DNA of 61,087 bases, the filler included. It is 3 parts of 3 records of this genome, joined end to end, with 100 filler letters (N's around TTAATTAATTAA, not from the genome) between each part and the next. Parts side by side here need not be neighbours in the genome. Positions count along the whole stretch, not along the records: positions 5,401 to 30,702 come from SRR20825006_2459; 2 more parts are not named here. One strand, given 5' to 3'. The notes beneath the pieces were generated by a model, which saw nothing but the letters and a program-made list of their open reading frames with translations, had not been told where the DNA came from and did not search any database. The position numbers and the translations under genes were made by a program. Every line of letters begins with the position of its first letter. Position 1 is the first letter of the stretch. This document shows, piece by piece, positions 8,320-30,802 of the stretch.

Positions 8320-8329
8320 ATCAAACCTT

Positions 8330-10989: not shown

Positions 10990-11085
10990 CCCCGTAAAAA
11001 AGTGTATGACAAAACTGAGCTTCTAAACCTTCATCAAAAAACTAAAAAAATTAGTGAGAACCAATATTAAACTACTCTTTCAAAA

Positions 11086-14454: not shown

Positions 14455-14461
14455 AAAAACC

Positions 14462-16138: not shown

Positions 16139-16154
16139 CTAAAATTTTAATCAT

Positions 16155-16182
16155 AAGGGCGGCTTCAATAGCCGCCCTTTTT
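16155..16182 (+). terminator. Hairpin after susD (partial terminator or mRNA-stabilising stem)
   Basis: AAGGGCGGCT-tcaat-AGCCGCCCTT followed by Ts. Confidence 0.7.
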
Positions 16183-16194
16183 AAAATCAACAGC

Positions 16195-17430
16195 ATGAAA
16201 AAACTACTTCTTTTTTCATGGGTTATGGGTTGTGCTTTTATTTCTCGAGCTCAAACTATAACTCAAGATCATCCCAACATAACCCAAGAGGGGCTACAAG
16301 CAAAAAATTTCTATTTGTTTTCGGTATTGGAAAACAATGCGGGGATCATGAATCTTCTAAAAACGGATAAGCAATTGAAATCCTACTGGGATAAAATGAC
16401 AATTCCCATGGAAACCTTGCCCCAAAATGGTAAGGAAATCATAACTCCATTTTTATGGTCGGAAAGTGATATCCAAACCATTGGAAACCGATTGGTGGAT
16501 TTGTCCAAGGGCAATGCTGACTTTAAGGGCCTTATCAAAAAGCTAAGGGATTCCAACCAATATGCAAATTTTGAACGGGCTTCTGATGATGAATATCTCT
16601 ATGACATATGGGAACAATGTGCCAAAGGATTGGATACGGTGTTGGAAGTTTACGGGGCAGGGAAAATGCCATTTTATAAAAATATTGATTCGGTTTCTTT
16701 TGATGCCAAATCGAAAAGATACCTCTATGCGGTTGCTACATTAAAGACACTGGCCATTGATGATGCCCAAGAGGAACAATTGTTCTTTCAACCAAGCTTA
16801 TATCTTGCCTTAAACTTGTTGTATGCCAACCATAAGGACGAAGCTGTTCGTTATGATCCATTGGACAAAAAAGAGAATGTCAAAGCTGTTCAAACCATAA
16901 AAAACACAGATTTTAAGTCTTATCCCTATGCATCCATTGTGGTTTTGGGAGGCGGTCCCGAAAATTATCGGGATAAACTTTCCATTGCGGGAAAGGTGAA
17001 CCTTCAATTGGCCATGAAAGAATACCGAGCCAAAAAAGCACCTTTTATAATTGTTTCAGGAGGTCATGTACATCCGTATATGACGCCTTACTGTGAGGCC
17101 GTGGAAATGAAACAAGCACTTATGGAGGAATATGGAGTTCCCGAAGAGTACATCATCATCGAACCTTATGCAAGACACACTACGACCAATATGCGAAATG
17201 CAACCCGATTAATGGTGGAATACGGGATTCCATTGGAACAAAAGAGCTTGGTGGTGACGAATCCTTCACATAGTGATTACACGGGGAGTGAAACGTTTAA
17301 AAGACGTTGTCAGGAAGAATTGGGCTATCAACCTGTAAATTTCCATGAGAGACTATCCCCAACTACCCTTGAATTTACAGGAAACAAAGTTTCATTCCAC
17401 CAAAATCCAAACCAACCCTTAGACCCATAA
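16195..17430 (+). CDS. Secreted YdcF/ElyC/SanA (DUF218) family protein with long N-terminal extension
   Basis: Signal peptide; C-terminal SIVVLGGG, IIVSGGHVHP...EA and EPYARHTTTN motifs. Confidence 0.85.
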   Translation: MKKLLLFSWVMGCAFISRAQTITQDHPNITQEGLQAKNFYLFSVLENNAGIMNLLKTDKQLKSYWDKMTIPMETLPQNGKEIITPFLWSESDIQTIGNRLVDLSKGNADFKGLIKKLRDSNQYANFERASDDEYLYDIWEQCAKGLDTVLEVYGAGKMPFYKNIDSVSFDAKSKRYLYAVATLKTLAIDDAQEEQLFFQPSLYLALNLLYANHKDEAVRYDPLDKKENVKAVQTIKNTDFKSYPYASIVVLGGGPENYRDKLSIAGKVNLQLAMKEYRAKKAPFIIVSGGHVHPYMTPYCEAVEMKQALMEEYGVPEEYIIIEPYARHTTTNMRNATRLMVEYGIPLEQKSLVVTNPSHSDYTGSETFKRRCQEELGYQPVNFHERLSPTTLEFTGNKVSFHQNPNQPLDP

Positions 17431-17434
17431 TGGT

Positions 17435-19522
17435 ATGAAAAAGTATGGTTTGTGTATTCCAATGGTGCTGCTGTTTTTCGCTTGTCAACAAAGGAAGGCT
17501 AAAAATGAGGTTGACTTAGTCAAATCCCCAAGTGAACAAGTGAACGGTTTTCTGGGCACCTCCGGAGATCATGGGCAAATGTCCCCGGCAGCGGCTTCTC
17601 CATTTAATATGATATCCATTGGCCCCGTGACCCATCCTGGCACACATACAGGCTATGATTACTATGCAAAGGAATTTTTAGGTTTTGTCCATACCCATAT
17701 TGAAGGTGTTGGTTGTAGAGGCGGGGGAGGTAACATTTTGGTAAAGCCTATTGGAAATGAAGAAGTGGATGAAAAATTGCTGAAGAAGCATGAGTCCGCC
17801 AAACCCGGTTATTACAAAGCCACCTTTGAAAATGGAATAAGTGCCGAAATGGCTACCGACCATAATTATGGGGTGCATCAATATCATTTTCCGGAATCGG
17901 GAAAAATGTTGAAAGTAGATTTGGCCTATGCCTTTTTAAATCGGTTCGAAGAAGCACAACACACTGCTGTTGGGAATACGATAAAAGGTTGGGTAGATAC
18001 CAAAACAGTTTGTGATAGGGGTAGGTACAGACTCTATTTTTATATGGAGTTTGACCATGTTTCCACTATTTCAAAATCACAAAAGGACAGCTATGTAATT
18101 TATGGCACAGGCAATCCAACAATAGGGTTGAAAATTGGTTTCTCTTCTGTAAATGAGGAGTTCGCCAAAACTAGGGTGGTCAATGGGGGTAGTTTGTCCA
18201 AAACCATTGAAAAGAGCACATTGGCTTGGAATGCCCTTTTGGGGCATGCAAAAGTGGAAGGAGAAGCAGATAGGGTAGCACTTTTTTATTCGTTGTTGTA
18301 TCGAGGCCTTCAATCTCCTTATGTAGTCTCGGAACCGGATGGAAGTTATAAGGCGATTGATGGAACAATTCAAAAATCCAAGGATTCTGTCTACCATGGA
18401 TGGGCTATTTGGGACAATTACAGGGAACAAATGCCTTTATTGTCGCTGCTGTATCCCCAAAAATATGGCGACATCGCAAGATCAATTGCCAATTTATATC
18501 TCTATGGTAAAAATGATTGGTCCACCCAATTTGAGCCCTCCAATTCAGTTCGCACGGAACATGCACAAGTGGTGCTTTTGGATGCTTTGGAGAAGGGGCA
18601 CGAGCTTCCTTTGATAAAAATAAAGGACTCTTTGATCAAGGAAATCGAAAAGTTGGATTTTGGTTCGCCCGACAAAGCTTTGGAATCTTCCTATGATCTA
18701 TGGGCAAGTTCCAAATTGATGTTGTCAATAGGGGATACCATGCTGGCCAACGAGTACCTAAATAAGGCTTTGGACTACAAAACTTATTGGGAAAAGGACT
18801 TTTCCGATATGGCTTGGCCCGATGTGGACCGCATGGGTGCCAGAGGATTGTATCAAGGTACGCTTTGGCAATACCGTTGGTTTGTACCTTTTGATATTGA
18901 GGGACTCCAGAGTTTGGCCGGTGGCGAGAGTGCTTTCAGGGAACAATTGGACCAATTTTTTGAAGAGAACAACTATAATCACGCCAACCAGCCCGATCTT
19001 CAGGTACCTGGACTTTACAACGCCACCAAAGAACCTTGGAAATCCCAACAACTCTATCGAGAACTTATGCTGGATACTGTGGTTCAAGCGTATTTCAATA
19101 ATAACAGCAAAGGTATCGACCCCTATATAGGTCGCATTTATAACAATAGCCCTCGGGCGTATTTAAAAACCATGGATGATGATATGGGCACCATGTCGTC
19201 TTGGTTTGTGCTAAGGGCCATGGGATTCTCTGCGGTGAATGTTGGGGAACCTGTATACTATGTAACAGCTCCCATTTTTAAGGAGGTGGAATTGAACTGG
19301 TCTTCACAAAAATCATTCAAAATTCAGGTTTCTAATTACCACAAGGATCATTTTTATATCAAATCTGTTCAGTTGAATGGAAAACCCTTACTGCGAAATT
19401 GGTTGACCCACCAGGAGATAATGAATGGTGGGGAATTGATTGTGGAAACTGATAGTGTTCCAAATCTGAATTGGGGAACAGAAAATCAATTTTTGACCAA
19501 AGTTAGCATAGAAAAAGATTGA
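17435..19522 (+). CDS. GH92 alpha-mannosidase lipoprotein, Gln-type (probable mannose-1-phosphodiester mannosidase)
   Basis: Lipobox FFAC; GWAIWDNYR, VRTE, LYQGTLWQYRWFVPFD, NHANQPD and MDDDMGTMSSWFV. Confidence 0.88.
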   Translation: MKKYGLCIPMVLLFFACQQRKAKNEVDLVKSPSEQVNGFLGTSGDHGQMSPAAASPFNMISIGPVTHPGTHTGYDYYAKEFLGFVHTHIEGVGCRGGGGNILVKPIGNEEVDEKLLKKHESAKPGYYKATFENGISAEMATDHNYGVHQYHFPESGKMLKVDLAYAFLNRFEEAQHTAVGNTIKGWVDTKTVCDRGRYRLYFYMEFDHVSTISKSQKDSYVIYGTGNPTIGLKIGFSSVNEEFAKTRVVNGGSLSKTIEKSTLAWNALLGHAKVEGEADRVALFYSLLYRGLQSPYVVSEPDGSYKAIDGTIQKSKDSVYHGWAIWDNYREQMPLLSLLYPQKYGDIARSIANLYLYGKNDWSTQFEPSNSVRTEHAQVVLLDALEKGHELPLIKIKDSLIKEIEKLDFGSPDKALESSYDLWASSKLMLSIGDTMLANEYLNKALDYKTYWEKDFSDMAWPDVDRMGARGLYQGTLWQYRWFVPFDIEGLQSLAGGESAFREQLDQFFEENNYNHANQPDLQVPGLYNATKEPWKSQQLYRELMLDTVVQAYFNNNSKGIDPYIGRIYNNSPRAYLKTMDDDMGTMSSWFVLRAMGFSAVNVGEPVYYVTAPIFKEVELNWSSQKSFKIQVSNYHKDHFYIKSVQLNGKPLLRNWLTHQEIMNGGELIVETDSVPNLNWGTENQFLTKVSIEKD

Positions 19523-19586
19523 CCATAACTTAACATATAAAAGATAAACAGTTCAATTCAGTTTGTTTATTTTTTTGATTGTGAGT

Positions 19587-19620
19587 AAGGTGCAGCCATA
19601 TTTGGGCTGCACCTTGTTTT
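19587..19620 (+). terminator. Intrinsic terminator-like hairpin
   Basis: AAGGTGCAGCC-atatttg-GGCTGCACCTT-gtttt. Confidence 0.7.
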
Positions 19621-19651
19621 AATTTAAAATAGATTTTTAAAAAACTTAAAG

Positions 19652-21205
19652 ATGTCAGCGAAACTTAAAATTGGAATGTTTTTTTTCGGGTTATTGGTAG
19701 TGGGTAAGACTGTAGGGCAGGAACCCCGTACCTATAAAGCGCCGGAATTTGATGTGGAATGGCGCAAACCCACAAATCACCCGGATAGAATTGTACTTTC
19801 CTATGGGGAGGATCCATCAACAACCGCCAGTGTTACGTGGCGAACAACTTCTGAAATAGATACTGCCTACGCAGAAATAGCCATTGCAACCGCAGCCCCT
19901 AAATTTTGGCGTAATGCAAAGACCATAAAAGCAGTGACCACAACTTTTGATGCTATAGAGATCAATGAGGCTGAAATACTGGCGAATTACCATTCAGTGT
20001 GGTTTACAGATTTAAAGAGTGATACAACTTATGCATATCGGGTAGGGGATGGCAAACGATGGAGCGAGTGGATTCAATTTAAAACCGCACCAAAAGAAAG
20101 TAAGGACAAGTTCTCATTTTTATACGTAGGGGACACCCAAAATTTTATATTGGAATTATGGTCACGTCTGATCAGGGAGAGCTATAAAAAAGCCCCTGAT
20201 GCAAAATTTATTGTGCATGCAGGTGATTTGGTAAACAACGCCCACAACGAACAACAATGGCAAGAATGGTTTGACGCTGGTGGTTGGATTCATAGTTCCA
20301 TTGGTGCTTTTCCGATTCCGGGAAACCATGAGTATCGAAATTTGAGCCCTGAAGCTTCTGAAAGAAGTTTGTCCGTACAATGGAAACATCAATTTACCTT
20401 ACCGGAAAATGGACCTGAGGGATTGGAAGAAACCGCTTATTACATGGACTATGGGAATATGCGGATTATTGGATTGAACAGTAATGTTGACCATGAGAAA
20501 CAAGCCGAGTGGGTAGATCATATACTATCGAAAACGGATAGTGATTGGGTCATCGTAACATTTCACCATCCTTTGTTTTCCGCTTCCGAGGGTAGGGACA
20601 ATAAAGAATGGAGGGAGTTAATGAAGCCTATTTTTGATCAATATGGGGTTGACCTAGTACTGCAGGGACATGATCATAGTTATGCCCGTGGCAGGGTATC
20701 TCCCAAAGAAAATGTATTGGATGGGGTCAATATGAGAGATAAAACTGGAACTGTATATGTAGTTTCGGTAAGTGGTGGAAAAATGTATGGCTTACGAAAA
20801 AACGCATGGGAAGGTTATGATGCCGAAAGAGATAGGGCGGCTGAAAACACACAGTTGTTCCAAGTAATCACCATCGAGGATAATAAATTGTCCTTTGAAT
20901 CCTACACGGCCGTTGGAGCGCTTTATGATGCGTTTGACTTAATTAAAAGGGCAGATCTTCCCAATGAATTTGTCGAAAGGGATACTGAAGCCATTGTGGA
21001 GCGTAGATTTTCCAATACCATTCCTTATCAAGATCCACTGCCTGAAGGAGCAGAAGAGTCATTATTGTCAAAATACCCTGGATTTGAAATAACCGGAGTA
21101 CATTTTGTAAACGATACCAATTTTATAGGATATAAGGTTCGATTGGAAAGAGGAGAAGACAGGGAGGAAATTTCTTTGGATGTGAATGGAAAATTTTTGG
21201 ATTAA
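19652..21205 (+). CDS. Secreted metallophosphoesterase (purple-acid-phosphatase-like N-terminal domain plus calcineurin-like catalytic domain)
   Basis: YAYRVGDG; metal-binding motifs GDTQ, GDLVN, GNHE, FHHP and GHDH. GDLVN lacks the Tyr ligand of true purple enzymes. Confidence 0.9.
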   Translation: MSAKLKIGMFFFGLLVVGKTVGQEPRTYKAPEFDVEWRKPTNHPDRIVLSYGEDPSTTASVTWRTTSEIDTAYAEIAIATAAPKFWRNAKTIKAVTTTFDAIEINEAEILANYHSVWFTDLKSDTTYAYRVGDGKRWSEWIQFKTAPKESKDKFSFLYVGDTQNFILELWSRLIRESYKKAPDAKFIVHAGDLVNNAHNEQQWQEWFDAGGWIHSSIGAFPIPGNHEYRNLSPEASERSLSVQWKHQFTLPENGPEGLEETAYYMDYGNMRIIGLNSNVDHEKQAEWVDHILSKTDSDWVIVTFHHPLFSASEGRDNKEWRELMKPIFDQYGVDLVLQGHDHSYARGRVSPKENVLDGVNMRDKTGTVYVVSVSGGKMYGLRKNAWEGYDAERDRAAENTQLFQVITIEDNKLSFESYTAVGALYDAFDLIKRADLPNEFVERDTEAIVERRFSNTIPYQDPLPEGAEESLLSKYPGFEITGVHFVNDTNFIGYKVRLERGEDREEISLDVNGKFLD

Positions 21206-21651
21206 TCCAATTTTTTCACCAATCAAAGCGATTGATAGAACATTGATATGTTTTGAAAGTAAGGTGAACAGAGGTTCAGGGGTTTTTTTATCCTCTTGGA
21301 CCTTTCCTGTTCCTAGATTCACAATAAGTACTATCGAATCCAAATCATCAAGTAAAGTCTCATTCTCTCGAATAAAGAAGAGTCTTGTTTGCACTTGGAG
21401 TGCCTATTCCAAATTCACTCGAGTAATTCCTTTAGCGAACTACTATTTTTCTTGGTGGCCAAATAATAGTCACAAGATTCTTTTTGGAGCTAAAAGACTT
21501 AAAATAAATCGTTTTTCCAAACTATTGCTCTGGAGGCTTAATTAGATAAAAACGTTAAAACAATAAAAGGAATTAGAAGCGAACATAGTTCCTAAGCAAT
21601 AAAATTGCTCCATATTTTTGAACTAACAAAAATATTGGGCGGTATCATTAA

Positions 21652-23058
21652 TTAATTTATTTCTAAGCTATCATCGGAAACGGTTTGGTTTCCTATTGCC
21701 TTAGTATTCATAAACCTGCTTACAACTTTTTCAAATGCACTTGGTGCAAAAAGTGCAATAAAATGCGGAGCGTTCTTAACTCTGATAAAGGATATTGAAC
21801 TGCTGTTTTGGGCAAGACGCTTGTAATGTCGCACGGCTCCCTTAATATGTGTTTTGGAATCGAGCGTACCATTGATAATCAAAGTTGGGGGTATGTGTTG
21901 TGGTGTTTTCCCAAAGTGTTCATCCCTAGAGTAGGTTGGCATCGAATTTTCAGCAATTAAACTGGGGAGTGGACTTTTAAACAATAAATCTTTTGACTCA
22001 TCAATAACTTCGGTTTTTGTCATTTCAGGTCTCAGATTATTTTCAGAAGCAGTAATGACCTGGGTTAATGGAATGGAATTGGTTGAGGATTGATACGCCG
22101 CGCCATAGTCATTATAAAACGCTGTGATCTGTGTGATGGCCTTTTGGAGTGGTTCATAGTCGTTGCTATTAAGCCCCTTTATGATTTCTGGTATTGAATT
22201 CCGTACATATGGTATGTCCAACATCATACCAAAAAGGATGGCCAGATCCTGTTTTGGTAAATTAGCAGCAAACTCAGTATCCGTTTTAGTGCGCTCTATG
22301 ATGCTGTTCAATTGCTCTTCCAAGGTTATGTCGTTAGGTGCCCTATGATCAACTTGTTCAAGGAAAGATTTTCCAACATCATCCGTGACCAATGATCTGT
22401 GGCTTAGATCAAATTCATCATCGTCTTGAAGGGGAACCAGAGAATCCAAGATGACGGCATCCAGATCTACTGTCCCTAATTGTAACAAACGTAATACCAA
22501 TTGTGTTCCATAGGAAACACCGTAGATGTAGCGCTCTTCCGTTCCACTAAATTCATTGATCAAGAAGCTAAGGTCCCTAGCGGCATTGGTAATAGTAAAT
22601 GCCTTTACGTACTCCAAATTACTGTACATGTAGTTAAAGCAGGGACCCCATTCATCATTGGCCAGAGCCATCCCATCTGGAGAATCAACTATTTCTTCTT
22701 TGGGACATATTTTACTGGAATATCCAGTGCCCCTATGATCAGGAACAAAAATATCCAGATTAGGAAATAGGTTAGAGAACTGATTGATCAGAGGATATAG
22801 ACTTGCACCGGATTCACCAGGTCCTCCAGGTATTAACCAGATAGATCCCTTTCTATCTTTTTTTGCAGGAAACTTTCTAACGAACAAGTTTATAGTATTT
22901 TCATCACCTTCTTGATAATTCAGGGGGGCTTTGGTAGTAATGCAAACGGAGCCATCAAGTTCAGGGACATTATCGGAATTAGGACAAGATTGGGATTGAG
23001 CGGTCCAAAATGCAAAGAAGCATAGAAAATGAACAGCTGATTGGATGATTTTCTTCAA
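21652..23058 (-). CDS. Secreted alpha/beta hydrolase (TAP / peptidase S33-like)
   Basis: Signal peptide; PGGPG oxyanion loop, DHRGTG, GVSYG nucleophile, NGTLD and APH. Confidence 0.88.
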   Translation of the reverse strand: MKKIIQSAVHFLCFFAFWTAQSQSCPNSDNVPELDGSVCITTKAPLNYQEGDENTINLFVRKFPAKKDRKGSIWLIPGGPGESGASLYPLINQFSNLFPNLDIFVPDHRGTGYSSKICPKEEIVDSPDGMALANDEWGPCFNYMYSNLEYVKAFTITNAARDLSFLINEFSGTEERYIYGVSYGTQLVLRLLQLGTVDLDAVILDSLVPLQDDDEFDLSHRSLVTDDVGKSFLEQVDHRAPNDITLEEQLNSIIERTKTDTEFAANLPKQDLAILFGMMLDIPYVRNSIPEIIKGLNSNDYEPLQKAITQITAFYNDYGAAYQSSTNSIPLTQVITASENNLRPEMTKTEVIDESKDLLFKSPLPSLIAENSMPTYSRDEHFGKTPQHIPPTLIINGTLDSKTHIKGAVRHYKRLAQNSSSISFIRVKNAPHFIALFAPSAFEKVVSRFMNTKAIGNQTVSDDSLEIN

Positions 23059-23132
23059 AATGTAATGGTTTTATAGAGTAAAATTTCAGCCTCTATAAGT
23101 AGAGACGCAAATTTACAATGAATGGTTGCCCG

Positions 23133-23149
23133 TCGTTTATTTAAACTTT
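23133..23149 (+). repeat. 17-bp module-boundary repeat, copy 1
   Basis: TCGTTTATTTAAACTTT (16/17 to consensus TCGTTTATTTGAACTTT). Confidence 0.85.
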
Positions 23150-23346
23150 AAAGATGCCAATAAGAGTCCGTTTCCTCTCCGCCATCAACCATTCTAATTT
23201 GGATATTGAACAATTCGGTCAGAATTTTATCTTTAGTTGAGTTATCAAATTCCTCAAATTTTATTTCCTCAATATGTTCCGAAATTTTGTCTCCGGTGTG
23301 CCATTTTTCCGCCACAATTTTATCAATCAAAATGTTCAATTCGGGT
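23148..23346 (-). pseudogene. Probable 5'-truncated gene fragment
   Basis: Protein-like acidic tail (ELNILIDKIVAEKW...MVDGGEETDSYWHL). Its only start lies inside the AraC gene, and it begins at an inverted copy of the 9206-9219 repeat. Confidence 0.5.
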
Positions 23347-23360
23347 TGTAGCCTTACCCC
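23347..23360 (-). repeat. Inverted copy of the post-traN repeat
   Basis: TGTAGCCTTACCCC is the exact reverse complement of 9206-9219 GGGGTAAGGCTACA. Confidence 0.9.
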
Positions 23361-23379
23361 ATTTTGGATTTTATGTGTT

Positions 23380-24180
23380 TTACAAATATTTGTGAAGGTG
23401 GCTTGCATCGGAAAATCCCCAGTTAAGTGCTACGGTCTCTTGGGTCAGATTAGAATTTTTTAGCTGAAAAGAGGCTCCCTTCACTCGATATTGTAATGCA
23501 AAATCAGAAAAGGTTGAACCCATTAGATCTTTGAACAAGGCCGTGAATTTAGTTACGGACATGTGGCACGCCAAAGCTGCCTCTTTAGTGGTTATGAGCC
23601 TTTTTTCTTCAAAAATCAAGCGTAAGGCTCCTTGAATGGAGGTTCTATGCCCATGATTTGATTCTTGTAAGGGAACTTTCCATTCTTCCATAAGGAAAAG
23701 CAACAATTCAAATAAATATATTTTAGCCCAGTCCGCATCATATTTTTTGGAAAACCTTTGTTGGACTTTTTTTGCCAGATTCTTTATTTCGCCCTTCAAA
23801 TTTACTGCTGTCCTAGGTCTATCCATTGGTGGAACCATAAATGTTGAAGTCATATCCCTATCTAAGAAAAGTGTGGTTGCCAAATATCTTGGGTCGATAA
23901 CAAATACAGCCACCTCACAGGGGGCCTCCAGTATTTCAAAACCATGTGGTTCCCACATATTGCAAAACCAAACCTCCCCTGGCCCTATTTCTATATCGTA
24001 TCCTAGGTACGAGCGTTTCATTTTACCTTTCAATACTACTCCCAGTTCGAATTCATAATGCATGTCAAACCAACCTTCTTCTCTGTTTTCATGCCTGTTC
24101 AATAAGATTTGGATGGGCTTGTTATCGTCAAGTTCAAAATAAAAGCGTTTAAAATCATCTATCTGTGCTCCATTTATCAT
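23380..24180 (-). CDS. AraC-family transcriptional regulator (cupin + HTH; C-terminus appears clipped)
   Basis: MHYEFELG...WEPHG cupin; HTH ends at WGFSDASHLHKYL; divergent from the GMC operon. Confidence 0.9.
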   Translation of the reverse strand: MINGAQIDDFKRFYFELDDNKPIQILLNRHENREEGWFDMHYEFELGVVLKGKMKRSYLGYDIEIGPGEVWFCNMWEPHGFEILEAPCEVAVFVIDPRYLATTLFLDRDMTSTFMVPPMDRPRTAVNLKGEIKNLAKKVQQRFSKKYDADWAKIYLFELLLFLMEEWKVPLQESNHGHRTSIQGALRLIFEEKRLITTKEAALACHMSVTKFTALFKDLMGSTFSDFALQYRVKGASFQLKNSNLTQETVALNWGFSDASHLHKYL

Positions 24181-24431
24181 ATTCTTTCATGATTTTACAA
24201 AAAATATGGAGTAATTTACAAAAAGACACATATAAGAATTGACCATATTTGAAATTAAACTTTAATCAAGGCAATTACAATTTGTTCTTGGGAATGAGTT
24301 TATCACTACTGATAAGAAACTCGGACACACAGTAAACCGGAAAATCGAGGTTGTTTTTTGAACGGATTTATTAGTTAGGCACATCTGGTTTATTAACAAT
24401 CAAATGGAACATTTCTTAATTATGAATTTTT

Positions 24432-26120
24432 ATGGAACATTTTGATGCCATCGTTATAGGATCGGGAATATCTGGAGGCTGGGCTGCCAAAGAACTTTGT
24501 GAACAAGGCTTAAAAACGCTCGTACTGGAAAGGGGAAGGGATGTAGAGCACATCAAAGATTATCCCACCATGACCATGGATCCGTGGGATTTTGAACACC
24601 GGGGCCGAATGACCAAAAAGTTCTATGAAGAAAACCCACTGATTACCAGGGCATCCGGATTTGGGGAGGATACGGCCCATTTTTTTATAAAGGATACTGA
24701 TCATCCCTATGTACAGGATAAACCTTTCGATTGGATACGAGGATATCAAGTAGGTGGTAAATCCCTGATTTGGGGAAGGGCCTGTCAACGTTGGAGCGAT
24801 TACGAGTTCAAAGCACCTGAAAAGTACAATTATGGGATAGGTTGGCCCATTGATTATAATGATATTGCCCCATGGTACTCCCATGTGGAGAAATTCATTG
24901 GCGTATGTGGTAATAAGGATGGTATTGAGGCTATGCCCGATGGGGAGTTTTTGCCCCCTTTCGAATTGAACTGCGTGGAGGAACACATGAAAAGCACGCT
25001 CGAAGAACATTTCTCTGGAAGATATTTGGCTCAGGGAAGATGGGCGCACCTCAGCGAACCAGAGCAAACCCATTTGGACCAAGGTAGGGGCAAGTGCCTT
25101 TGTCGCAATAAGTGTATGAGAGGATGTCCATTCGGAGGGTACTTCAGTTCTAACACCTCCACATTGCCTTGGGCCGAGAAAACAGGTAACCTAACGATTA
25201 GACCGTTTTCGGTAGTGCATTCAATTGTTTACGATGAGGATTCGGGAAAAGCTTCCGGTGTCAAGGTCATTGATTCCAATACAAAAGAGGAGTTCATCTT
25301 CAGCGCCAGAATTATTTTTGTGAATGCATCGGCACTCAATTCCAATTTGATTTTACTCAATTCAAAATCCGATCGTTTTCCCAATGGTCTGGGCAACGAT
25401 TATGACTTATTGGGAAGGTATATCGGTTTTCATATATACAGGGCCCGAGCAGGTGCCAAAATCAGTGGATATGAGGACAAATATTATTATGGTTCAAGGC
25501 CATCGGAATGTATTATAGCCAATTACCGGAATTTAAAGGAACAGGATACCGATTTTCTTGGCGGATATACTATTTTTACCGGAGCCTATCGAAACAGAGC
25601 CGAAGAAATCCCTGACGAGAAACCACACCTTGGGGCAGACTTTAAACACAAACTAAGTAAACCCGGGAATTGGCAAATCTATATGTACATGCAGGGAGAA
25701 ACTATCCCAAAAGCATCGAACAGGGTTTATTTGAGCCAGGATAAGACAGATGATTGGGGCATTCCCTTACTTGTCACAGATGTTGGTTATGATGAAAATG
25801 ACGAAAAAATGATTAAAGATTTTCTTGTGGAAAGTCGTCGCATGCTCGAAAAAATGGGCTGTACGGATATAGACACACAGGACAACAACCAAGCACCTGG
25901 ATTGGATATCCACGAAATGGGTGGTGTAAGAATGGGGAAAGACCCTGAGACTTCCCTTCTGAACAAATACAACCAAATGCATGAATGCAAAAATGTATTT
26001 GTGACCGATGGCGCCTGTATGACCAGTACGGGCAATCAAAGTCCATCCATTCTGTATATGGCACTTACAGCACGGGCAGCCACATATGCTGCGGCCCAGT
26101 TTAAAAAAGGATTGTTATAA
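24432..26120 (+). CDS. GMC-family FAD oxidoreductase (glycoside 3-dehydrogenase-like large subunit)
   Basis: DAIVIGSGISGGWAAKEL, GYQVGGKS, CLCRNKCMRGC Cys cluster, IHEMGGVRMG and QSPSILYMALTARAA. Confidence 0.92.
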   Translation: MEHFDAIVIGSGISGGWAAKELCEQGLKTLVLERGRDVEHIKDYPTMTMDPWDFEHRGRMTKKFYEENPLITRASGFGEDTAHFFIKDTDHPYVQDKPFDWIRGYQVGGKSLIWGRACQRWSDYEFKAPEKYNYGIGWPIDYNDIAPWYSHVEKFIGVCGNKDGIEAMPDGEFLPPFELNCVEEHMKSTLEEHFSGRYLAQGRWAHLSEPEQTHLDQGRGKCLCRNKCMRGCPFGGYFSSNTSTLPWAEKTGNLTIRPFSVVHSIVYDEDSGKASGVKVIDSNTKEEFIFSARIIFVNASALNSNLILLNSKSDRFPNGLGNDYDLLGRYIGFHIYRARAGAKISGYEDKYYYGSRPSECIIANYRNLKEQDTDFLGGYTIFTGAYRNRAEEIPDEKPHLGADFKHKLSKPGNWQIYMYMQGETIPKASNRVYLSQDKTDDWGIPLLVTDVGYDENDEKMIKDFLVESRRMLEKMGCTDIDTQDNNQAPGLDIHEMGGVRMGKDPETSLLNKYNQMHECKNVFVTDGACMTSTGNQSPSILYMALTARAATYAAAQFKKGLL

Positions 26121-26132
26121 TAAATTAAGATT

Positions 26133-27215
26133 ATGGACAAAAAAGTCGGAGTCGGACTCGTCGGTTCTCAATTCATATCAAGTATACATGCCGATGCATT
26201 GAGCAGGGTATCGGATGCGGAGATTTTAGCGGTAATGTCTCCTACAAAAGGGCATGCCGAAAACTTTGCAGAAAAGTTCAACATTCCCAATCATTTTACG
26301 GATCTGGACAAAATGTTGGCAATGCCGCAAATTGATATGGTGGTCATTGGCGCACCCAACTATCTACACTGTGAGATTACTTTAAAGATAGCAAAGGCAG
26401 GCAAACATGTAGTGGTTGAAAAACCTTTGTGCATGAACTTAAAGGAAGCGGATTTAATGATCGATGCCTGTAAAAAAGCCAATGTAAAGCTCATGTATGC
26501 CGAAGAACTTTGTTTCGCCCCTAAATATGTGCGTTTGAAGGCTTTATTGGACGAAGGAGCCCTTGGAGAGCCTGTGCTCTTCAAACAATCGGAAAAACAC
26601 GATGGCCCTCACGCCGACCACTTTTGGGATATTGAACGCTCTGGAGGTGGGGTAACTATGGATATGGGCTGCCATGCCATCCAATTTTTTAGATGGCTAC
26701 ATCCTAAAAAAAACATTAAATCGGTATATGCCCAAATGATGACCAGTGTGCACGGCGATAAAACCGAAGGTGATGACAACTCCATTATTATTCTGGAATT
26801 CGAAGATGGTGTAACGGCCGTAATGGAAGAAAGCTGGACCAAACTCGGGGGCATGGACGATAAAGCCGAAATACATGGTTCTGAAGGAGTGGCCTACGCA
26901 GATATACTCCAAGGCAACTCAATCCAAACATACAGTAGCAAGGGAGTGGGCTATGCTGTGGAAAAGGCAGGAAACACCATTGGGTGGAGCTATACCATGT
27001 TTGAAGAGAGCTGGAACTATGGCTTCCCACAGGAATTTGAACATTTTGTGGATTGTGTCAAAAATGACAAACAGCCCTTGGTGACAGGGGAAGATGGAAA
27101 GGCTGTACTGGAAGTGATTCTTGCGGCCTATGAATCAGCGGGCACTGGAAAAAAAGTGCCACTTCCTTTCAAATCGGATGTGGACAAGCCCTATAAATTA
27201 TGGAAGAAAGTATAG
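26133..27215 (+). CDS. Gfo/Idh/MocA NAD(P)-dependent oxidoreductase
   Basis: GKHVVVEKPL and GGGVTMDMGCH motifs. Confidence 0.93.
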   Translation: MDKKVGVGLVGSQFISSIHADALSRVSDAEILAVMSPTKGHAENFAEKFNIPNHFTDLDKMLAMPQIDMVVIGAPNYLHCEITLKIAKAGKHVVVEKPLCMNLKEADLMIDACKKANVKLMYAEELCFAPKYVRLKALLDEGALGEPVLFKQSEKHDGPHADHFWDIERSGGGVTMDMGCHAIQFFRWLHPKKNIKSVYAQMMTSVHGDKTEGDDNSIIILEFEDGVTAVMEESWTKLGGMDDKAEIHGSEGVAYADILQGNSIQTYSSKGVGYAVEKAGNTIGWSYTMFEESWNYGFPQEFEHFVDCVKNDKQPLVTGEDGKAVLEVILAAYESAGTGKKVPLPFKSDVDKPYKLWKKV

Positions 27216-27250
27216 TGGTCATGTTCCCACTATTCCAAACAGATTAAAAC

Positions 27251-27805
27251 ATGGAAAGAAGAGATGCTTTAAAACTTACAGCCACCATTTTGGGAGGAAG
27301 TGTCATAGGAGCCCAATTCTTTTTGTCGGGCTGTGTTGTGCCCCCCAAGAAAAGGTCTGAAATTGTAACCAATGACGATGTTCACTTTCTTGATGAAATA
27401 GGCGAAACCATTCTTCCTGACACAGACGAGTCCCCTGGGGCAAAGGCAGCTCATATTGGAGCATTTATGAAAACAATCGTAAATGACTGTTATAGCAAAG
27501 ATGAAGCCTTAATCTTTATCAGTGGTTTGGATAAAATCGAGGAAAGATCCATAGATGTATTTCGAGAATCATTTCTCTCTTTATCGAAAGAAAAAAAACT
27601 AAATCTACTTACCCAATTTGATGAGGAGGCCAAAAAAGCCACATCTTTGGAGAAGCCCCATTTTTTCACCATGCTCAAAGAGCTTACCGTTTGGGGTTAT
27701 TTTACTTCTGAGATTGGTGCGACCCAAGCCCTTCGTTACAATCCAGTTCCCGGTAGATTTGAAGGCTGCATTCCCTATACAGGTGAAAGCGTTTGGATAT
27801 CATGA
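27251..27805 (+). CDS. Gluconate 2-dehydrogenase subunit 3 family protein (Tat-exported small subunit)
   Basis: MERRDALK twin-arginine signal; ETILPDTDESPGAKAA; KELTVWGYFTSEIG; VPGRFEGC. Confidence 0.9.
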   Translation: MERRDALKLTATILGGSVIGAQFFLSGCVVPPKKRSEIVTNDDVHFLDEIGETILPDTDESPGAKAAHIGAFMKTIVNDCYSKDEALIFISGLDKIEERSIDVFRESFLSLSKEKKLNLLTQFDEEAKKATSLEKPHFFTMLKELTVWGYFTSEIGATQALRYNPVPGRFEGCIPYTGESVWIS

Positions 27806-28509
27806 ACAACCAATTCTTTGAAGACTATGAAGCGATGAGCGCACATGCGGGCCATATTGTACTCTCAGAACTTAAAAGGAAAAAAAACCTTCGTATTTGT
27901 GCAGCTACCGGAAACTCCCCGACAGGAACCTACGAGTTTTTGGCAAGGCAATATTTGAATCGGCCAGAGCTTTTCGAAAAGCTCCATATTGTAAAATTGG
28001 ATGAATGGGGCGGGCTACCCGATACAAACCCAGGTTCTTGTGAGTATTATTTGCAGGAACACCTTCTAAGTCCCTTGCATATTCCCAATGATCGATACAC
28101 TGGTTTTATCACCAACCCACAAAATGCTTCGAAAGAGTGTAATAGGATTCAACAAAAGATTGAAAATGATGGTTTAATCGATTTGTGTATTTTGGGATTG
28201 GGGAAGAACGGACATATTGGCTTTAATGAGCCTGATTACCACTTGCAGCCATTTTGCCATGTGGCTCAACTTTCGGAGGCATCACAAAAGCATGGTATGG
28301 TTAAGGATTTGGATATAAAACCATCGTTCGGAATGACGCTGGGTATGCAAAACATCCTCTCTGCCAAAAGAATAATCCTCTTGATTTATGGAACGGGCAA
28401 AGAAGAAGTACGCTCCAAATTGAAGAAAAAAATCATAACTACCCAATTGCCTGCTACTTTCTTATGGCTTCACCCCAAGGTTGATTGTTTGCAAGTAAAA
28501 AGTACCTAG
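27802..28509 (+). CDS. Glucosamine/galactosamine-6-phosphate isomerase (NagB/AgaI-like)
   Basis: ATGNSPTGTY, KLDEWGG, LGLGKNGHIGFNEP and LPATFLWLHP; ATGA overlap with the upstream gene. Confidence 0.88.
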   Translation: MNNQFFEDYEAMSAHAGHIVLSELKRKKNLRICAATGNSPTGTYEFLARQYLNRPELFEKLHIVKLDEWGGLPDTNPGSCEYYLQEHLLSPLHIPNDRYTGFITNPQNASKECNRIQQKIENDGLIDLCILGLGKNGHIGFNEPDYHLQPFCHVAQLSEASQKHGMVKDLDIKPSFGMTLGMQNILSAKRIILLIYGTGKEEVRSKLKKKIITTQLPATFLWLHPKVDCLQVKST

Positions 28510-28534
28510 TGGCCCCTTAAGGGTTTGGATTGAA

Positions 28535-28551
28535 TCGTTTATTTGAACTTT
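28535..28551 (+). repeat. 17-bp module-boundary repeat, copy 2
   Basis: TCGTTTATTTGAACTTT (consensus). Confidence 0.9.
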
Positions 28552-28560
28552 GTTGACAGG

Positions 28561-28953
28561 TTAGGCTGTCGGTACAATCTCTATTAGAATCTCATTTCCA
28601 ACTTTATCGTAATATATACAGGTCATTCTACCAAGATTCACTTTCCATTTTTCGATTCCTGTTTCAGCACAATGTTGACAAAAGGTAAGATAATCCGTTT
28701 CTCCCTTTTGATGAATTCTTAAATACTTTTCAAATCCTTCCTTATCACAAAAATCAGCAATGATCAGCATATCATATTTTGCTTCAGATTTGGTTTGAAA
28801 TCCATCTTTTCCAAAATATTGGGTATGACTATCAGTTACCCATGTTTCAAATGCGGTTACACCAATGTCTTTGATTTCTTGAATGTATTTTGGAAAATCA
28901 GCACCAGATTTAACCTTCTCATGTGCGGTTTCGATTTGCTCTATGGTAAACAT
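28561..28953 (-). CDS. DUF1398 family protein
   Basis: MFTIEQIETAHEKVKSGADFPKYIQEIK...HQKGETDYLTFC...GIEKW...CIYYD. Confidence 0.85.
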   Translation of the reverse strand: MFTIEQIETAHEKVKSGADFPKYIQEIKDIGVTAFETWVTDSHTQYFGKDGFQTKSEAKYDMLIIADFCDKEGFEKYLRIHQKGETDYLTFCQHCAETGIEKWKVNLGRMTCIYYDKVGNEILIEIVPTA

Positions 28954-29016
28954 TGTTTAAATTTTAGTTGTAAATGAATATCCGAGTTATTTTTACATAA
29001 ACCGTAAACCTGTTCA

Positions 29017-29033
29017 TCGTTTTTTTGAACTTT
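29017..29033 (+). repeat. 17-bp module-boundary repeat, copy 3
   Basis: TCGTTTTTTTGAACTTT (16/17). Confidence 0.88.
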
Positions 29034-29048
29034 AGTTTTCCTTTTTAA

Positions 29049-29507
29049 TTAATTTAGTAGTATCAACTTCCTTTTTACAACTTCAAAATCATCTAATAGG
29101 AACACCCTTGTTGCACTTATGTGTGTGCTTTGGGATTTCATATACAGATGAATTTGTTCGCTTGAATCATCAATCTTGAACGAAATCTTAAAAATATCCT
29201 TGAAGATCTGATTCTCGGTGTTAAACTTGATTTTAATTTCATTTTTTTCTTCTATTGGCTTCCAATCATATTTATCTCTTTTGCCAACTTTACTTGAAAT
29301 TATGGGTGGTTTGAATTTGAAATCATTAAATGAAAGGATTGCCGCAATAACCTCAGGAGTAATATCAGTACCTTTATGTTCAATTTTATTTAAAACATAG
29401 CCGCCATCTAGTGTCTCCGCAATTTTCGCATCTTTTGATTTGCATCCTAGAAGACAAATTACAACAGTTAGTAGGACGGTATGGTTTAATTTTAGATGAT
29501 TCTTCAT
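29049..29507 (-). CDS. Hypothetical lipoprotein
   Basis: Lipobox LLGC after a hydrophobic stretch; AT-rich; the ATG overlaps repeat copy 4. Confidence 0.7.
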   Translation of the reverse strand: MKNHLKLNHTVLLTVVICLLGCKSKDAKIAETLDGGYVLNKIEHKGTDITPEVIAAILSFNDFKFKPPIISSKVGKRDKYDWKPIEEKNEIKIKFNTENQIFKDIFKISFKIDDSSEQIHLYMKSQSTHISATRVFLLDDFEVVKRKLILLN

Positions 29508-29523
29508 CGTTTACTTGAACTTT
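29507..29523 (+). repeat. 17-bp module-boundary repeat, copy 4
   Basis: TCGTTTACTTGAACTTT (16/17). Confidence 0.88.
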
Positions 29524-29527
29524 AAAC

Positions 29528-29995
29528 TTAATATTGTTCGTGCAGAAAGTTTATAAATTCATCCTTATCTTCATCTTCTTCACGACCAAGAAAATGGATA
29601 ACGGCCAACCTTTCATTGCTGACATAGTATTGATGGCACTCCAACCGGTACTGAATATCATCCTCACCATCCGAGAACCATATCTCTATTTCAATCGGAG
29701 TACTGTAATCTACGCCTAGTTTCTCCAGTTCTCGAAGATTTTCATAAATACCGCTCGGAGTTTGATCATTGAGAAGGTTTCCGTCATCATCAAAAAGGTC
29801 TTCCTGCTCCCGCCGCCGCATGACCAAGTAAACCGTTTTATGATTTTCAACAAAATAAGCTCCGTCAATGGTTGCTTCCACCGTCTCTTCCCCATTGACA
29901 ATCCTGGCAGTAATACGATTGGCAATCAAATCATTCCTTATCCAGTCCTCGACAATTTCCAATAGTATGCCAAAATTTACGCTTATTTTCTGCAT
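29528..29995 (-). CDS. Hypothetical acidic protein
   Basis: 155-aa ORF rich in D/E; fills the gap between repeat copy 4 and the ParE-family toxin gene; no family recognised. Confidence 0.65.
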   Translation of the reverse strand: MQKISVNFGILLEIVEDWIRNDLIANRITARIVNGEETVEATIDGAYFVENHKTVYLVMRRREQEDLFDDDGNLLNDQTPSGIYENLRELEKLGVDYSTPIEIEIWFSDGEDDIQYRLECHQYYVSNERLAVIHFLGREEDEDKDEFINFLHEQY

Positions 29996-30029
29996 GTATA
30001 TTTGTACTTTTTAATCAGATAAATATCTG

Positions 30030-30320
30030 CTAAAGATGTCTTTTGAAATCTCTTACTTGTCCTAAAATGCGAACGACGAATATGCCCTTTTCAGTTGGTT
30101 CGTAAAAAATTGTGTGTGCCTTATAGTTGTATCTTCTAAGTAGAGCCGCAAATTCTGAAGCACTTCGGCCAAGATCGGGATTATCTGCCAGAGTTTGTAA
30201 AAATTGGTATAATTCGGTAACATAGATATGCGTCTGTGATTCACCCCAAGTTTCCAAGGTATAATCCACTATATCATCGATATCGTCATCCGCTTTGGAC
30301 GATAAATAATATCTAGGCAT
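30030..30320 (-). CDS. Type II toxin, RelE/ParE family (ParE1-like)
   Basis: YYLSSKADDDIDDIVDYTLETWGESQ...NPDLGR...HTIFY...IFVVRIL. Confidence 0.9.
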   Translation of the reverse strand: MPRYYLSSKADDDIDDIVDYTLETWGESQTHIYVTELYQFLQTLADNPDLGRSASEFAALLRRYNYKAHTIFYEPTEKGIFVVRILGQVRDFKRHL

Positions 30321-30573
30321 TTCTGTTCTTTTTACGAACTATCGCAGCTTCAATAATTTCATCAACAGACCTGATTTTAGAATTTACGCCACTATCATAA
30401 CCATCCTGTATGGCCGCCTTAGTGATTAGAAACTCCCTATTGCGCTCCTCATCCAATCGTATTAGATGTCGCATGTATTCACTATCGTTTGCGAAGCCAC
30501 CATTCTTGATTTGTAATTTTATCCACTCTTCCTGGGCAGCAGTTATAGTTAATGATTTTCTTATTGTTGCCAT
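30313..30573 (-). CDS. Type II antitoxin, ParD (CC2985-like RHH)
   Basis: MATIRKSLTIT...QIKNGGFANDSEYMRHLIR...AIQDGYDSG; overlaps the toxin start. Confidence 0.9.
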   Translation of the reverse strand: MATIRKSLTITAAQEEWIKLQIKNGGFANDSEYMRHLIRLDEERNREFLITKAAIQDGYDSGVNSKIRSVDEIIEAAIVRKKNRNA

Positions 30574-30673
30574 AATAATAGTATTTACATACAATATACA
30601 CATTATAACATATTATTGATGCAAATTTATTGAATATTTGTCAAACGGAATTATATCAGGAATGTTTTAGGAA

Positions 30674-30690
30674 TCGTTTGTTTGAACTTT
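30674..30690 (+). repeat. 17-bp module-boundary repeat, copy 5 (12 bp from the contig end)
   Basis: TCGTTTGTTTGAACTTT (16/17). Confidence 0.88.
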
Positions 30691-30702
30691 TCTTTGATTA
30701 TA

Positions 30703-30802
30703 NNNNNNNNNNNNNNNNNNNNNNNNNNNNNNNNNNNNNNNNNNNNTTAATTAATTAANNNNNNNNNNNNNNNNNNNNNNNNNNNNNNNNNNNNNNNNNN
30801 NN
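30703..30802. other. Artificial contig linker
   Basis: N44 + TTAATTAATTAA + N44. Confidence 0.99.

Follow-up and report, generated by a model that had tools for sequence, protein, structure and literature searches.

An 18-bp repeated site at the junctions of small gene units and its polar linkage to a small serine recombinase gene in marine Flavobacteriaceae

A repeated site and the genes between its copies

The window, the whole stretch of DNA that was analysed (61,087 nucleotides), consists of three parts of one genome joined by N spacers. TraM (PF12508) and a TraN-like DUF4138 protein are encoded on the plus strand at 7414-9136, in agreement with the conjugative-element context given in a preliminary description of this DNA. 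Further along, a 17-bp motif recurs on the plus strand at 23133, 28535, 29017, 29507 and 30674, each copy with at most one mismatch, and our count of exactly five copies matches the one reported earlier. The number expected from shuffles is 0.06, and five or more copies were reached in 0 of 100 shuffles. One base beyond the 17-mer is also conserved. The full site is 18 nt long, reads AAAGTTCAAATAAA[C/G]GAT on the gene (minus) strand and starts at 23132, 28534, 29016, 29506 and 30673. The flanks are unconserved and appear random, so conservation is confined to 18 nt; this agrees with the earlier remark that an attC-type hairpin is absent. A scan of the whole 61-kb window with the 18-mer, allowing up to three mismatches, returned the same five copies only, and parts 1 and 3 therefore hold none, in line with the preliminary description, which had noticed no near-perfect copy there. 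The site, GTTCA-AA-TAAAC, can be read as two GTTYA half-sites inverted around a central AA, with 5 of 9 positions symmetric.

Site 1 (23132-23149, minus strand) lies furthest from the array head. It has two mismatches to the 18-mer and is overlapped by the stop codon of an ORF at 23148-23408. The 5.4-kb unit between sites 1 and 2 (23150-28533) carries genes on both strands: an 86-aa ORF and an AraC regulator on the minus strand, and GMC oxidoreductase, GFO/IDH/MocA, gluconate-2-DH subunit 3 and 6PGL-like genes on the plus strand. Its GC content of 41% is backbone-like, and it is therefore not a typical cassette. All remaining sites and ORFs are on the minus strand. Site 2 (28534-28551) is an exact 18-mer and site 3 (29016-29033) has one mismatch; between them lies a cassette with a 130-aa DUF1398 ORF (28561-28953; PF07166, E 2.6e-38). 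A 152-aa ORF with a lipobox and without a Pfam match (29049-29507) reaches into site 4 (29506-29523, one mismatch), and its ATG is made of the last two bases of that site plus a G. Beyond site 4 are a 155-aa ORF without a Pfam match (29528-29995) and a cassette (30030-30603) assigned by Pfam domains to a ParE toxin (30030-30320) and a ParD antitoxin (30313-30603). Site 5 (30673-30690) has one mismatch. The contig breaks 12 nt later, as first noted, with the N spacer beginning at 30703.

These block contents are those described earlier, and re-measurement of the distances from the minus-strand stops to the motif gave the same values (overlap, 9, 15 and 4 nt). The last block, previously taken as a single unit, is split in two by a decayed sixth site (29994-30011, minus strand, five mismatches), which has the ParDE unit on one side and the 155-aa unit on the other and is abutted by the ATG of the 155-aa ORF. 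A free-standing 662-bp ParDE unit of locus L131 has 97% homology to the window, and this homology stops exactly at the decayed site. The A-rich 3' end of the site often provides the AT of the ATG of the following ORF, and the site may also act as a translation leader.

The site as a junction between unrelated units

It had been proposed that the motif is the junction of a site-specific, integron-like cassette system and that related arrays should show modules shuffled exactly at it. Homology was indeed found to break at the motif edge in both directions, with units shuffled. Among 455 distinct copies of the site, no pair shared both flanks, and 63 pairs shared a single flank (41 upstream only, 22 downstream only). 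Of the 41 upstream-only pairs, 38 lose their homology at position 17 or 18 of the motif; of the 22 downstream-only pairs, 16 have homology that starts at position -1 or 0. The 523 inter-site units fall into 426 families, and the neighbour differs in 42 of 42 comparisons of homologous, non-identical units.

The same pattern is found around the window itself. Based on a comparison of contigs, sequences from four metagenome runs (four studies) part from the window at the edges of each of the five sites. Loose ends lie at 23128-23133 for site 1 (contigs of runs X5, X10 and X12), 28532 and 28551/28552 for site 2, 29013/29016 and 29033 for site 3, 29516 for site 4 (X5 and X10, with one X12 contig beginning there), and 30673 and 30690 for site 5. 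These comparisons show the motif to be a real junction at which small unrelated gene cassettes appear to be swapped. A scan of Flavobacteriaceae genomes bears on the alternative that the motif is a core regulator site: most genomes have no copy or one and a few have clusters, and it is therefore not such a site.

The units are integron-like. The median length of 204 units is 639 bp, and 138 of them have one ORF. Orientation is largely uniform (287 co-oriented ORFs against 22 that are not), array GC is below that of the upstream flank in 36 of 37 loci, and about 70% of the sampled unit ORFs (77 of 110) lack a Pfam family. ParE and ParD are the commonest ORF clusters near arrays, and one ORF of the 110 sampled matches an Imm family.

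Linkage of the arrays to a small serine recombinase gene

Across marine Flavobacteriaceae, a gene for a small resolvase-type recombinase immediately precedes such arrays, and this linkage is polar. In 80 loci retrieved with the approximately 223-aa Gin/gamma-delta-like serine recombinase, where flanks of 667 and 668 kb were compared, the downstream side has 263 sites on the same strand and 0 on the opposite strand, and the upstream side has 0 and 11, respectively. Ten of these 11 upstream sites are at -104 to -110, about 105 nt before the recombinase ATG. At least one downstream site is present in 56, and at least two in 50, of the 70 loci with at least 3 kb of sequence downstream of the gene. 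In loci ascertained by the motif instead, 10 of 10 resolvase genes are upstream of the array and co-oriented with it. The inverted upstream site, present in 49 of 60 loci examined, forms the left edge of the conserved platform and is a slight variant that differs from the cassette sites at central positions. Repeated boxes resembling the GTTYA half-site form a res-like stretch upstream of the recombinase gene.

The recombinase is of the serine type (PF00239). Of 76 ORFs examined, 71 are full length with an N-terminal GYxR(V/I)S(T/S) motif, and the invariant residues are the resolvase catalytic set (serine nucleophile, conserved Arg/Asp/Glu); judged by these features the enzyme looks active. 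Among proteins of solved structure it is closest to Gin invertase (E 1.7e-36) and to gamma-delta/Tn3 resolvase, and no NCBIfam model reaches its cut-off. The C-terminal DNA-binding domain matches HTH_7 in the short type of the protein. In the long type, the structure model has a three-helix bundle at 148-189 and its fold aligns to full-length Tn3/gamma-delta resolvase. Most members bear an extra C-terminal CxxC...CxxH tail.

We propose, with a probability of roughly 0.7, that this small serine recombinase of the resolvase/invertase family operates a gene-cassette system in which the 18-bp motif serves as crossover site. Several observations count against this reading. Crossover sites of characterised resolvases and invertases are 26-30 bp, longer than the 18-bp site, and to our knowledge small resolvases are normally limited to resolution or inversion and do not integrate. 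In 14 of the 70 loci with at least 3 kb downstream there is no downstream site. The site does not vary with recombinase clade and thus gives no signal of co-evolution. Many arrays lie in genomes without such a recombinase, among them G001, G043 and G106, in which none was found, and in four of six family genomes with a recombinase match that match contains stop codons.

The same recombinase-less arrays in G001, G043 and G106 favour a different enzyme acting in trans on true recombination sites, with the small resolvase only resolving multimers of the element at its own upstream res-like site; the central differences between the upstream and cassette sites point the same way. We consider this quite improbable given the polar 263:0:0 association with the resolvase, whose own upstream site contains the same 18-mer core. 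Furthermore, no other recombinase recurs near the arrays, where 1049 of 1209 neighbouring ORF clusters are singletons.

The preliminary description had assigned gene capture to the tyrosine integrase of the conjugative element. Site-specific capture junctions were borne out; the enzyme was not. A CTnDOT-like tyrosine integrase of about 410-430 aa does lie beside the array in six motif-ascertained loci (convergent in five), the motif abuts its stop codon in L057 and L032, and in 11 of 80 loci the integrase precedes the resolvase. However, only 8 of 80 integrase-anchored loci have sites within 10 kb, and the 22 sites concerned are of mixed orientation (13 same strand, 9 opposite). G043 holds about 30 sites and just two tyrosine recombinases, and over 100 kb separates both of these from the arrays. 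The partner enzyme of the site is probably not this integrase, and capture by it at the motif seems very unlikely.

The inverted upstream site also recalls a Hin-like switch, in which the recombinase gene between inverted sites would be an invertible segment toggling array expression and the array sites would be by-products. In three loci (L153-L155) the inverted site precedes the gene by about 105 nt and a direct site follows 79 nt downstream, resembling the hixL-hin-hixR layout. Yet the flipped arrangement occurs in 0 of 80 loci (no downstream opposite-strand site and one distant upstream opposite-strand site), the gap to the first direct site varies widely, and unit shuffling is left unexplained, so that we give this explanation very little credence.

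Finally, the 18-mer could be a translation leader associated with stops and starts, or an operator bound by the recombinase as a regulator, with units exchanged by rare homologous or illegitimate recombination at the shared short sequence, as proposed for conserved linkers of phage genes. Bacteroidota lack Shine-Dalgarno sites and prefer A-rich leaders, which speaks for this idea, as do arrays that persist where the genome has no such recombinase. Of 229 copies located downstream of recombinase genes, 78 directly adjoin an ATG. In a set of 73 copies, 13 adjoin the ATG of an ORF that is 40 aa or longer, and 26 are overlapped by the preceding stop or have it at most 20 nt away. Two thirds of the copies, however, are not next to a start codon. 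The motif is sharply bounded and a junction on both sides, and an inverted copy lies in the res-like region ahead of a catalytically intact recombinase gene. Moreover, no junctions are conserved between species, although a stretch of 18 bp gives homologous exchange very little to act on. We therefore regard an expression role of this kind as an unlikely explanation of the arrays.

A candidate cassette platform among known systems

Under the serine-recombinase reading, the platform would run from the inverted variant site about 105 nt before the ATG through the res-like GTTYA boxes and the recombinase gene to the array of direct sites. Recombinase dimers would bind the 18-bp site at its two inverted GTTYA half-sites, and two sites would synapse and be cut and rejoined. 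Recombination between two direct sites would release the intervening unit together with a single site; units would be inserted or swapped when this reaction ran backwards or when two arrays present in the same cell underwent exchange. The asymmetric site centre would keep sites and ORFs in a single orientation, and the conjugative element would move the array from cell to cell. We infer the catalysis, the circular intermediates and the crossover point. With respect to the last, variants at positions 5-6 go with the upstream flank and positions 9, 10 and 14 vary in both flank classes, a linkage that does not place the crossover cleanly.

We also lean towards a broader view in which this is a 'serine integron', an independently evolved capture and shuffling platform. 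Here a Gin/resolvase-like enzyme would insert, excise and reorder single-gene cassettes at a plain 18-bp duplex site and the platform would ride conjugative elements across many marine Flavobacteriaceae genera. Its non-autonomous derivatives would be mini-platforms that lack the recombinase and orphan arrays, both of which could be served in trans. A literature search for a description of such a system found none.

Integrons are the textbook device to stockpile and shuffle single genes, and need a specialised tyrosine recombinase and folded single-stranded sites. The present arrays resemble integrons in several respects: a recombinase gene stands at the head, the cassettes are short, low in GC, co-oriented and mostly of one ORF, their functions are for the most part unknown, toxin-antitoxin pairs are common among them, the same cassettes turn up beside different neighbours and in different orders, and some arrays lack a recombinase (as do CALINs, the integron arrays without integrase). 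In contrast to integrons, the array-adjacent enzyme is a serine recombinase (PF00239) and not the IntI tyrosine recombinase, and its gene is read in the same direction as the cassettes, unlike the divergent intI. The 18-bp site is of duplex type without an attC-like hairpin, whereas attC sites, tens of bp long, are imperfect palindromes with a hairpin fold.

With the Gin/Hin invertases and Tn3/gamma-delta resolvases the enzyme shares fold and catalytic residues, and a site and half-site-like boxes precede its gene, as in res. Those systems use two sites for resolution or inversion, whereas in the present arrays unrelated single genes are set apart by as many as about ten minimal sites, all direct and lacking accessory DNA. 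Module exchange at res is known between Tn3-family transposons. In SCC elements, the serine recombinase Ccr directs site-specific capture, and short direct repeats lie between tandem elements, features that the present arrays would share. Ccr enzymes (CcrA/B/C families), however, are large serine recombinases (>440 aa) encoded inside multi-kb elements, whereas the enzyme of about 223 aa sits outside the cassettes; Ccr models score the 224-aa protein at 47-50 bits against cut-offs of 700-900.

The same phylum has the rAID-1 loci, recombinase-associated arrays of immunity genes in gut Bacteroidales. In these, low-GC genes that all point one way follow a 5' recombinase gene, and the repetitive DNA between them is called 'reminiscent of integrons' (bioRxiv 10.1101/471110). 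Their definition there rests on interbacterial immunity-gene content and on a tyrosine recombinase of XerD type with 44% or more identity to its B. fragilis counterpart (bioRxiv 10.1101/471110). The two layouts are alike in having a 5' recombinase, co-directional low-GC downstream genes and repeated intergenic sequence. They differ in that the 5' gene here encodes a serine recombinase, and they may differ in gene content, given the single Imm match and the 77 ORFs without a Pfam family among the 110 sampled.

If the proposal is right, cassette platforms evolved convergently, with a second, unrelated solution. A large pool of unknown marine Flavobacteriaceae genes would be opened to study, and a resolvase-type enzyme would have an unusual natural role, that of integration. 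Paired with a site so short and simple, an enzyme of this kind could serve as a useful DNA-assembly tool. For the window, the proposal would account for unrelated small genes between identical short repeats, and under it the array should stay frozen until another element brings in a recombinase.

The nearest genome, G001, suggests why. At the array head there the recombinase ORF has been deleted from the platform, and a search of G001 for a second copy of the same recombinase found none. The window array is therefore probably the distal part of an orphan array, inert unless the recombinase arrives in trans. On the near-identical G001 contig (C64) the array extends about 2.5 kb past site 5 to the recombinase-less platform, which adjoins a T4CP gene.

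Sites as module junctions

The preliminary description listed five copies of a 17-mer in the window, at 23133, 28535, 29017, 29507 and 30674. All five were recovered on the plus strand with at most one mismatch; shuffled sequences predict 0.06 such matches, and none of 100 shuffles reached five. A search of the whole 61 kb with an 18-mer that includes one further conserved base, tolerating three mismatches, returned just the same five sites (N spacers joining the three contigs lie at 5301-5400 and 30703-30802). The surrounding layout was likewise reproduced. The genes are on the minus strand; one stop overlaps the motif and the others are 9, 15 and 4 nt away. The last copy is 12 nt from the contig end, and conjugation genes are present as TraM and a TraN-like gene at 7414-9136.

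Read on the gene strand, the motif is AAAGTTCAAATAAA[C/G]GAT. Across 73 copies from related loci it has abrupt conservation edges and unconserved flanks, and position 17 is T in 68 of them though it was absent from the search pattern. Positions 6, 9, 10 and 14 are variable. An inverted pair of GTTYA boxes flanking a central AA can be read directly within the motif. About one third of copies (78 of 229) end in ATG, and in 13 of 73 copies this is the start codon of an ORF of 40 aa or longer. In 26 of 73, the preceding stop is separated from the motif by no more than 20 nt or overlaps it. The site may thus double as an A-rich translation leader. Reading it as a promoter was rejected, the motif being unlike the Bacteroidota -33/-7 consensus on either strand.

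The site marks a junction between modules. In pairwise comparisons of 455 distinct copies, none was alike in both 40-nt flanks; 41 pairs are alike upstream only, 22 downstream only, and 2 are intermediate. Homology in the upstream-only pairs crosses the motif and stops at position 17 (27 of 41) or 18 (11 of 41), and in the downstream-only pairs it starts at position 0 (12 of 22) or -1 (4 of 22). Enlarging the set to 642 copies gave 57 and 30 one-sided pairs, respectively, and again no two-sided pair. The 523 units delimited by successive sites fall into 426 families, and where homologous but non-identical units were compared the neighbouring family differed every time (42 of 42). As a guide to the crossover point, linkage between site variants and flanks assigns only positions 5-6 clearly to the upstream side. 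Within the window, the block holding a 155-aa ORF and ParDE consists of two units divided by a decayed site at 29994-30011; its ParDE half is 97% identical to a free-standing 662-bp unit at another locus (L131), and the match stops at the decayed site.

Environmental contigs were also compared with this part of the window. Positions 22900-30702 are present at no less than half of the sampled words in 18 runs from 12 studies, of which four runs, as a possible source of the window DNA, were excluded from support. Logan contigs from four metagenome runs, each of a different study, were aligned to the stretch. Contigs sharing one unit pass into unrelated sequence at 23128/23130/23133, 28532, 28551/28552, 29013/29016, 29033, 29516, 30673 and 30690, which are the edges of all five site copies. 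For example, a 3310-nt contig matches 29516-30690 only, and a 7369-nt contig follows the window over 23001-29033 before diverging. Further loose contig ends at 25768-26396 fall within the conserved GMC gene and bear no relation to the motif. Being contigs, they reveal alternative neighbours of units rather than products of recombination. The lipoprotein unit at 29164-29424 has zero depth in two runs (X10 and X12), and no contig spans the gap. Separately, contigs from X5 and X12 omit 130 nt at 24280-24411, between the AraC and GMC oxidoreductase genes; the difference is an indel polymorphism or reflects a small element inserted in the window.

A regulator site common in core intergenic DNA had been named as the alternative to a recombination site. 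We scanned 201 genomes of Flavobacteriaceae, each from a different genus, tolerating one mismatch. At least one match occurs in 42 genomes, mostly as a single match, and at least three copies in eight (20 in G043, 17 in G001, 9 in G107, 5 in G025, 4 in G194, and 3 each in G106, G047 and G035), in same-strand clusters where listed. G001 has 12 matches to a degenerate pattern and none to the reversed control. A scan for exact matches in one genome per species found at least 120 stretches. Among the 80 exact matches listed, nearly all are from Flavobacteriaceae, including Flagellimonas/Allomuricauda, Maribacter, Aquimarina, Croceitalea, Pricia and Spongiimicrobium, and those elsewhere are isolated single ones, consistent with chance. 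Because the motif is patchy and clustered across genomes, it is not a core regulatory site.

A small serine recombinase at the head of the arrays

Most ORF clusters neighbouring the arrays are singletons (1049 of 1209). The recurrent ones encode ParE and ParD (14 loci each), a beta-lactamase-fold protein (13), a small serine recombinase (PF00239; 10) and a CTnDOT-like tyrosine integrase (6). In these motif-ascertained loci, the serine recombinase gene lies upstream of the array and co-oriented with it in 10 of 10 cases. A second set of 80 loci was ascertained by the recombinase protein, with 10-kb flanks (667 and 668 kb compared). Here the linkage of sites to the recombinase gene is polar: downstream there are 263 same-strand and 0 opposite-strand sites, and upstream 0 same-strand and 11 opposite-strand sites, 10 of the latter at -104 to -110 from the ATG. 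In the 70 loci with at least 3 kb available downstream, 56 have at least one downstream site and 50 at least two. A Hin-like inversion was rejected, as no flipped arrangement was seen among the 80 loci.

The preliminary description had viewed the repeats as scars of a gene-capture system probably run by the tyrosine integrase of the ICE. The scar reading is supported; the choice of the integrase is not. Control loci anchored on tyrosine integrases have sites in 8 of 80 cases, and the 22 sites involved are divided between strands (13 same-strand, 9 opposite-strand). In G043, which has about 30 sites in three arrays, the only two tyrosine recombinases are each separated from the arrays by more than 100 kb. 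We consider the small serine recombinase the best candidate enzyme, with a probability of roughly 70%.

The protein is about 223 aa long, with a shorter form of about 200 aa, and has a GYxRVST motif at its N-terminus, together with the Arg, Asp and Glu residues that are invariant in resolvases. A full-length ORF with the GYxRVST-type motif was found in 71 of the 76 examined (4 of 80 were omitted, their match not beginning at residue 1), and the enzyme is, judging from these residues, apparently active. Its closest solved relatives by sequence are the Gin invertase (E 1.7e-36) and the gamma-delta/Tn3 resolvase, and an AlphaFold model (pLDDT 81.6) aligns with full-length Tn3 and gamma-delta resolvases over about 187 columns. 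Past the helix-turn-helix domain, 57 of 76 proteins (L153:10001-10675 and relatives) have an extra C-terminal CxxC...CxxH tail, modelled as a small beta-hairpin and helix, which to our knowledge is unusual among small resolvases and invertases. No NCBIfam model matched the protein at its cut-off, and a search of a plasmid collection returned only generic resolvases at <60% identity. Site and recombinase clade do not co-vary; the identical site, with the same variability, lies downstream of three clades of 55-100% identity.

The recombinase gene is part of a conserved platform. Of 60 loci examined, 49 have an inverted site (consensus ACCGTTTTATTGAACTTT) about 105 nt before the ATG. In 79 pairs of inverted sites the inner flanks match at 75% or more, and only 1 of these pairs has matching outer flanks as well; since the likeness stops at the inverted site, this site is the left boundary of the platform. 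Between it and the ATG are repeated GTTTAC/GTTCAT-like boxes and an inverted TAAAC box, an arrangement that appears reminiscent of a multi-part res site. In 14 of the 70 loci with sufficient downstream sequence (L186, L188, L190-L192, L195, L197, L198 and others) the upstream inverted site is present without a downstream array, that is, as a platform lacking cassettes. The context upstream of the platform is not conserved, apart from a tyrosine integrase in 11 loci; type IV coupling protein and relaxase genes adjoin the platform in 3 loci.

Directly upstream of the first site is a conserved sequence of about 60 nt with an 8-bp inverted repeat (TATAAATG...CATTTATA). It occurs in G001 on contig C64 at about 10235-10297 and before the sites at 11006 (L013), C46:1515 (L016) and C20:829 (L032), and also at L155:10676-10740. 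It reappears within arrays as ORF-less units, and might serve as a promoter or in protein binding. The spacer that follows the recombinase gene and precedes the first site gave no notable RNA fold (z = -0.68).

On the most economical reading, the small serine recombinase would recombine the 18-bp sites and so excise, insert or swap units, with the asymmetric centre of the site imposing a single orientation. Three points count against it: an 18-bp site is short for the resolvase/invertase family, characterised small resolvases are not known to integrate DNA, and many arrays are without the enzyme. The comparisons demonstrate that the site is a junction and that its linkage to the recombinase gene is polar; catalysis by the recombinase at these sites is inferred. 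The system resembles integrons in its workings, but IntI and attC, which define integrons, are both absent. The rAID-1 arrays of gut Bacteroidales are defined by a XerD-like tyrosine recombinase, whereas the enzyme here is a member of the resolvase/invertase family. We know of no characterised member of that family with such an array architecture. A full-text search, with subscription journals and supplements outside its coverage, returned no account of arrays that have a serine recombinase at their head.

Cassette content

The 204 units downstream of recombinase genes have a median length of 639 bp (range 186-7046 bp), and 138 contain a single ORF. ORFs are mostly co-oriented with the site (287, against 22 that are not; 240 against 7 in units <2 kb). 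No Pfam family was assigned to 77 of 110 sampled cassette ORFs. The remainder include ParE or ParD (6), Abi_alpha, glyoxalase, DinB, methyltransferase and outer-membrane beta-barrel families (2 each), and singletons such as APH, Imm11 and GIY-YIG. Median GC is 32.4% in arrays compared with 37.6% in the upstream 10 kb, with the array the poorer of the two in 36 of 37 loci. GC within the window is 34.6% across the small units (28534-30690) and a backbone-like 41.4% in the 5.4-kb unit, which may therefore represent backbone, or else a large insertion, instead of a cassette.

Arrays without a recombinase

The recombinase occurs in six of the 201 family genomes, and four of the six matches contain stops. 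Arrays occur in its absence in five genomes (G001, G043, G194, G106 and G035), making orphan arrays common, much like the CALINs of integrons. The fraction of exact sites is 0.31 in recombinase-less genomes and 0.22 downstream of recombinase genes, but the two sets were ascertained differently and the fractions are uninformative on site decay. G001 lacks this recombinase family altogether, its sole PF00239 match being a 545-aa protein. It is the genome nearest to the window, and its contig C64 has 99.86% identity to window positions 14930-30702 over 15,774 bases. The array in the window is probably an inactive, recombinase-less copy. C64 continues past 30702, where the contig in the window stops, and carries four or five further sites within about 2.5 kb (two have 2 mismatches). 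Next come genes for a type IV coupling protein, a DUF5712 relaxase-like protein, RadC and SSB.

C64 also has a platform, at 10099-10315, in which all that is left of the recombinase ORF is a fusion of a few codons from either end. Such mini-platforms of about 215 bp comprise the inverted site, the res-like boxes, the ORF stump and the first direct site. We found them with an identical deletion junction at eight loci: that on C64 (L013), G001:C46 1535-1731 (L016), L069, L111, L129, L086, L070 and L033, which include several Flagellimonas records besides the two G001 contigs. Given this recurrent junction, the mini-platform looks like a non-autonomous derivative of single origin that spread among genomes.

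Past the mobilisation genes, C64 has a further exact site at 314-330, followed by genes for a porin, a PepSY-like protein and a two-component system on the opposite strand. Sites therefore also flank larger blocks, core genes of the element included. Between the tra genes and the array, window positions 9423-21205 encode a FecR anti-sigma factor, an ECF sigma factor, SusC/SusD, a DUF218 protein, a GH92 enzyme and a purple acid phosphatase, a polysaccharide-utilisation-like block that is apparently cargo of the same element.
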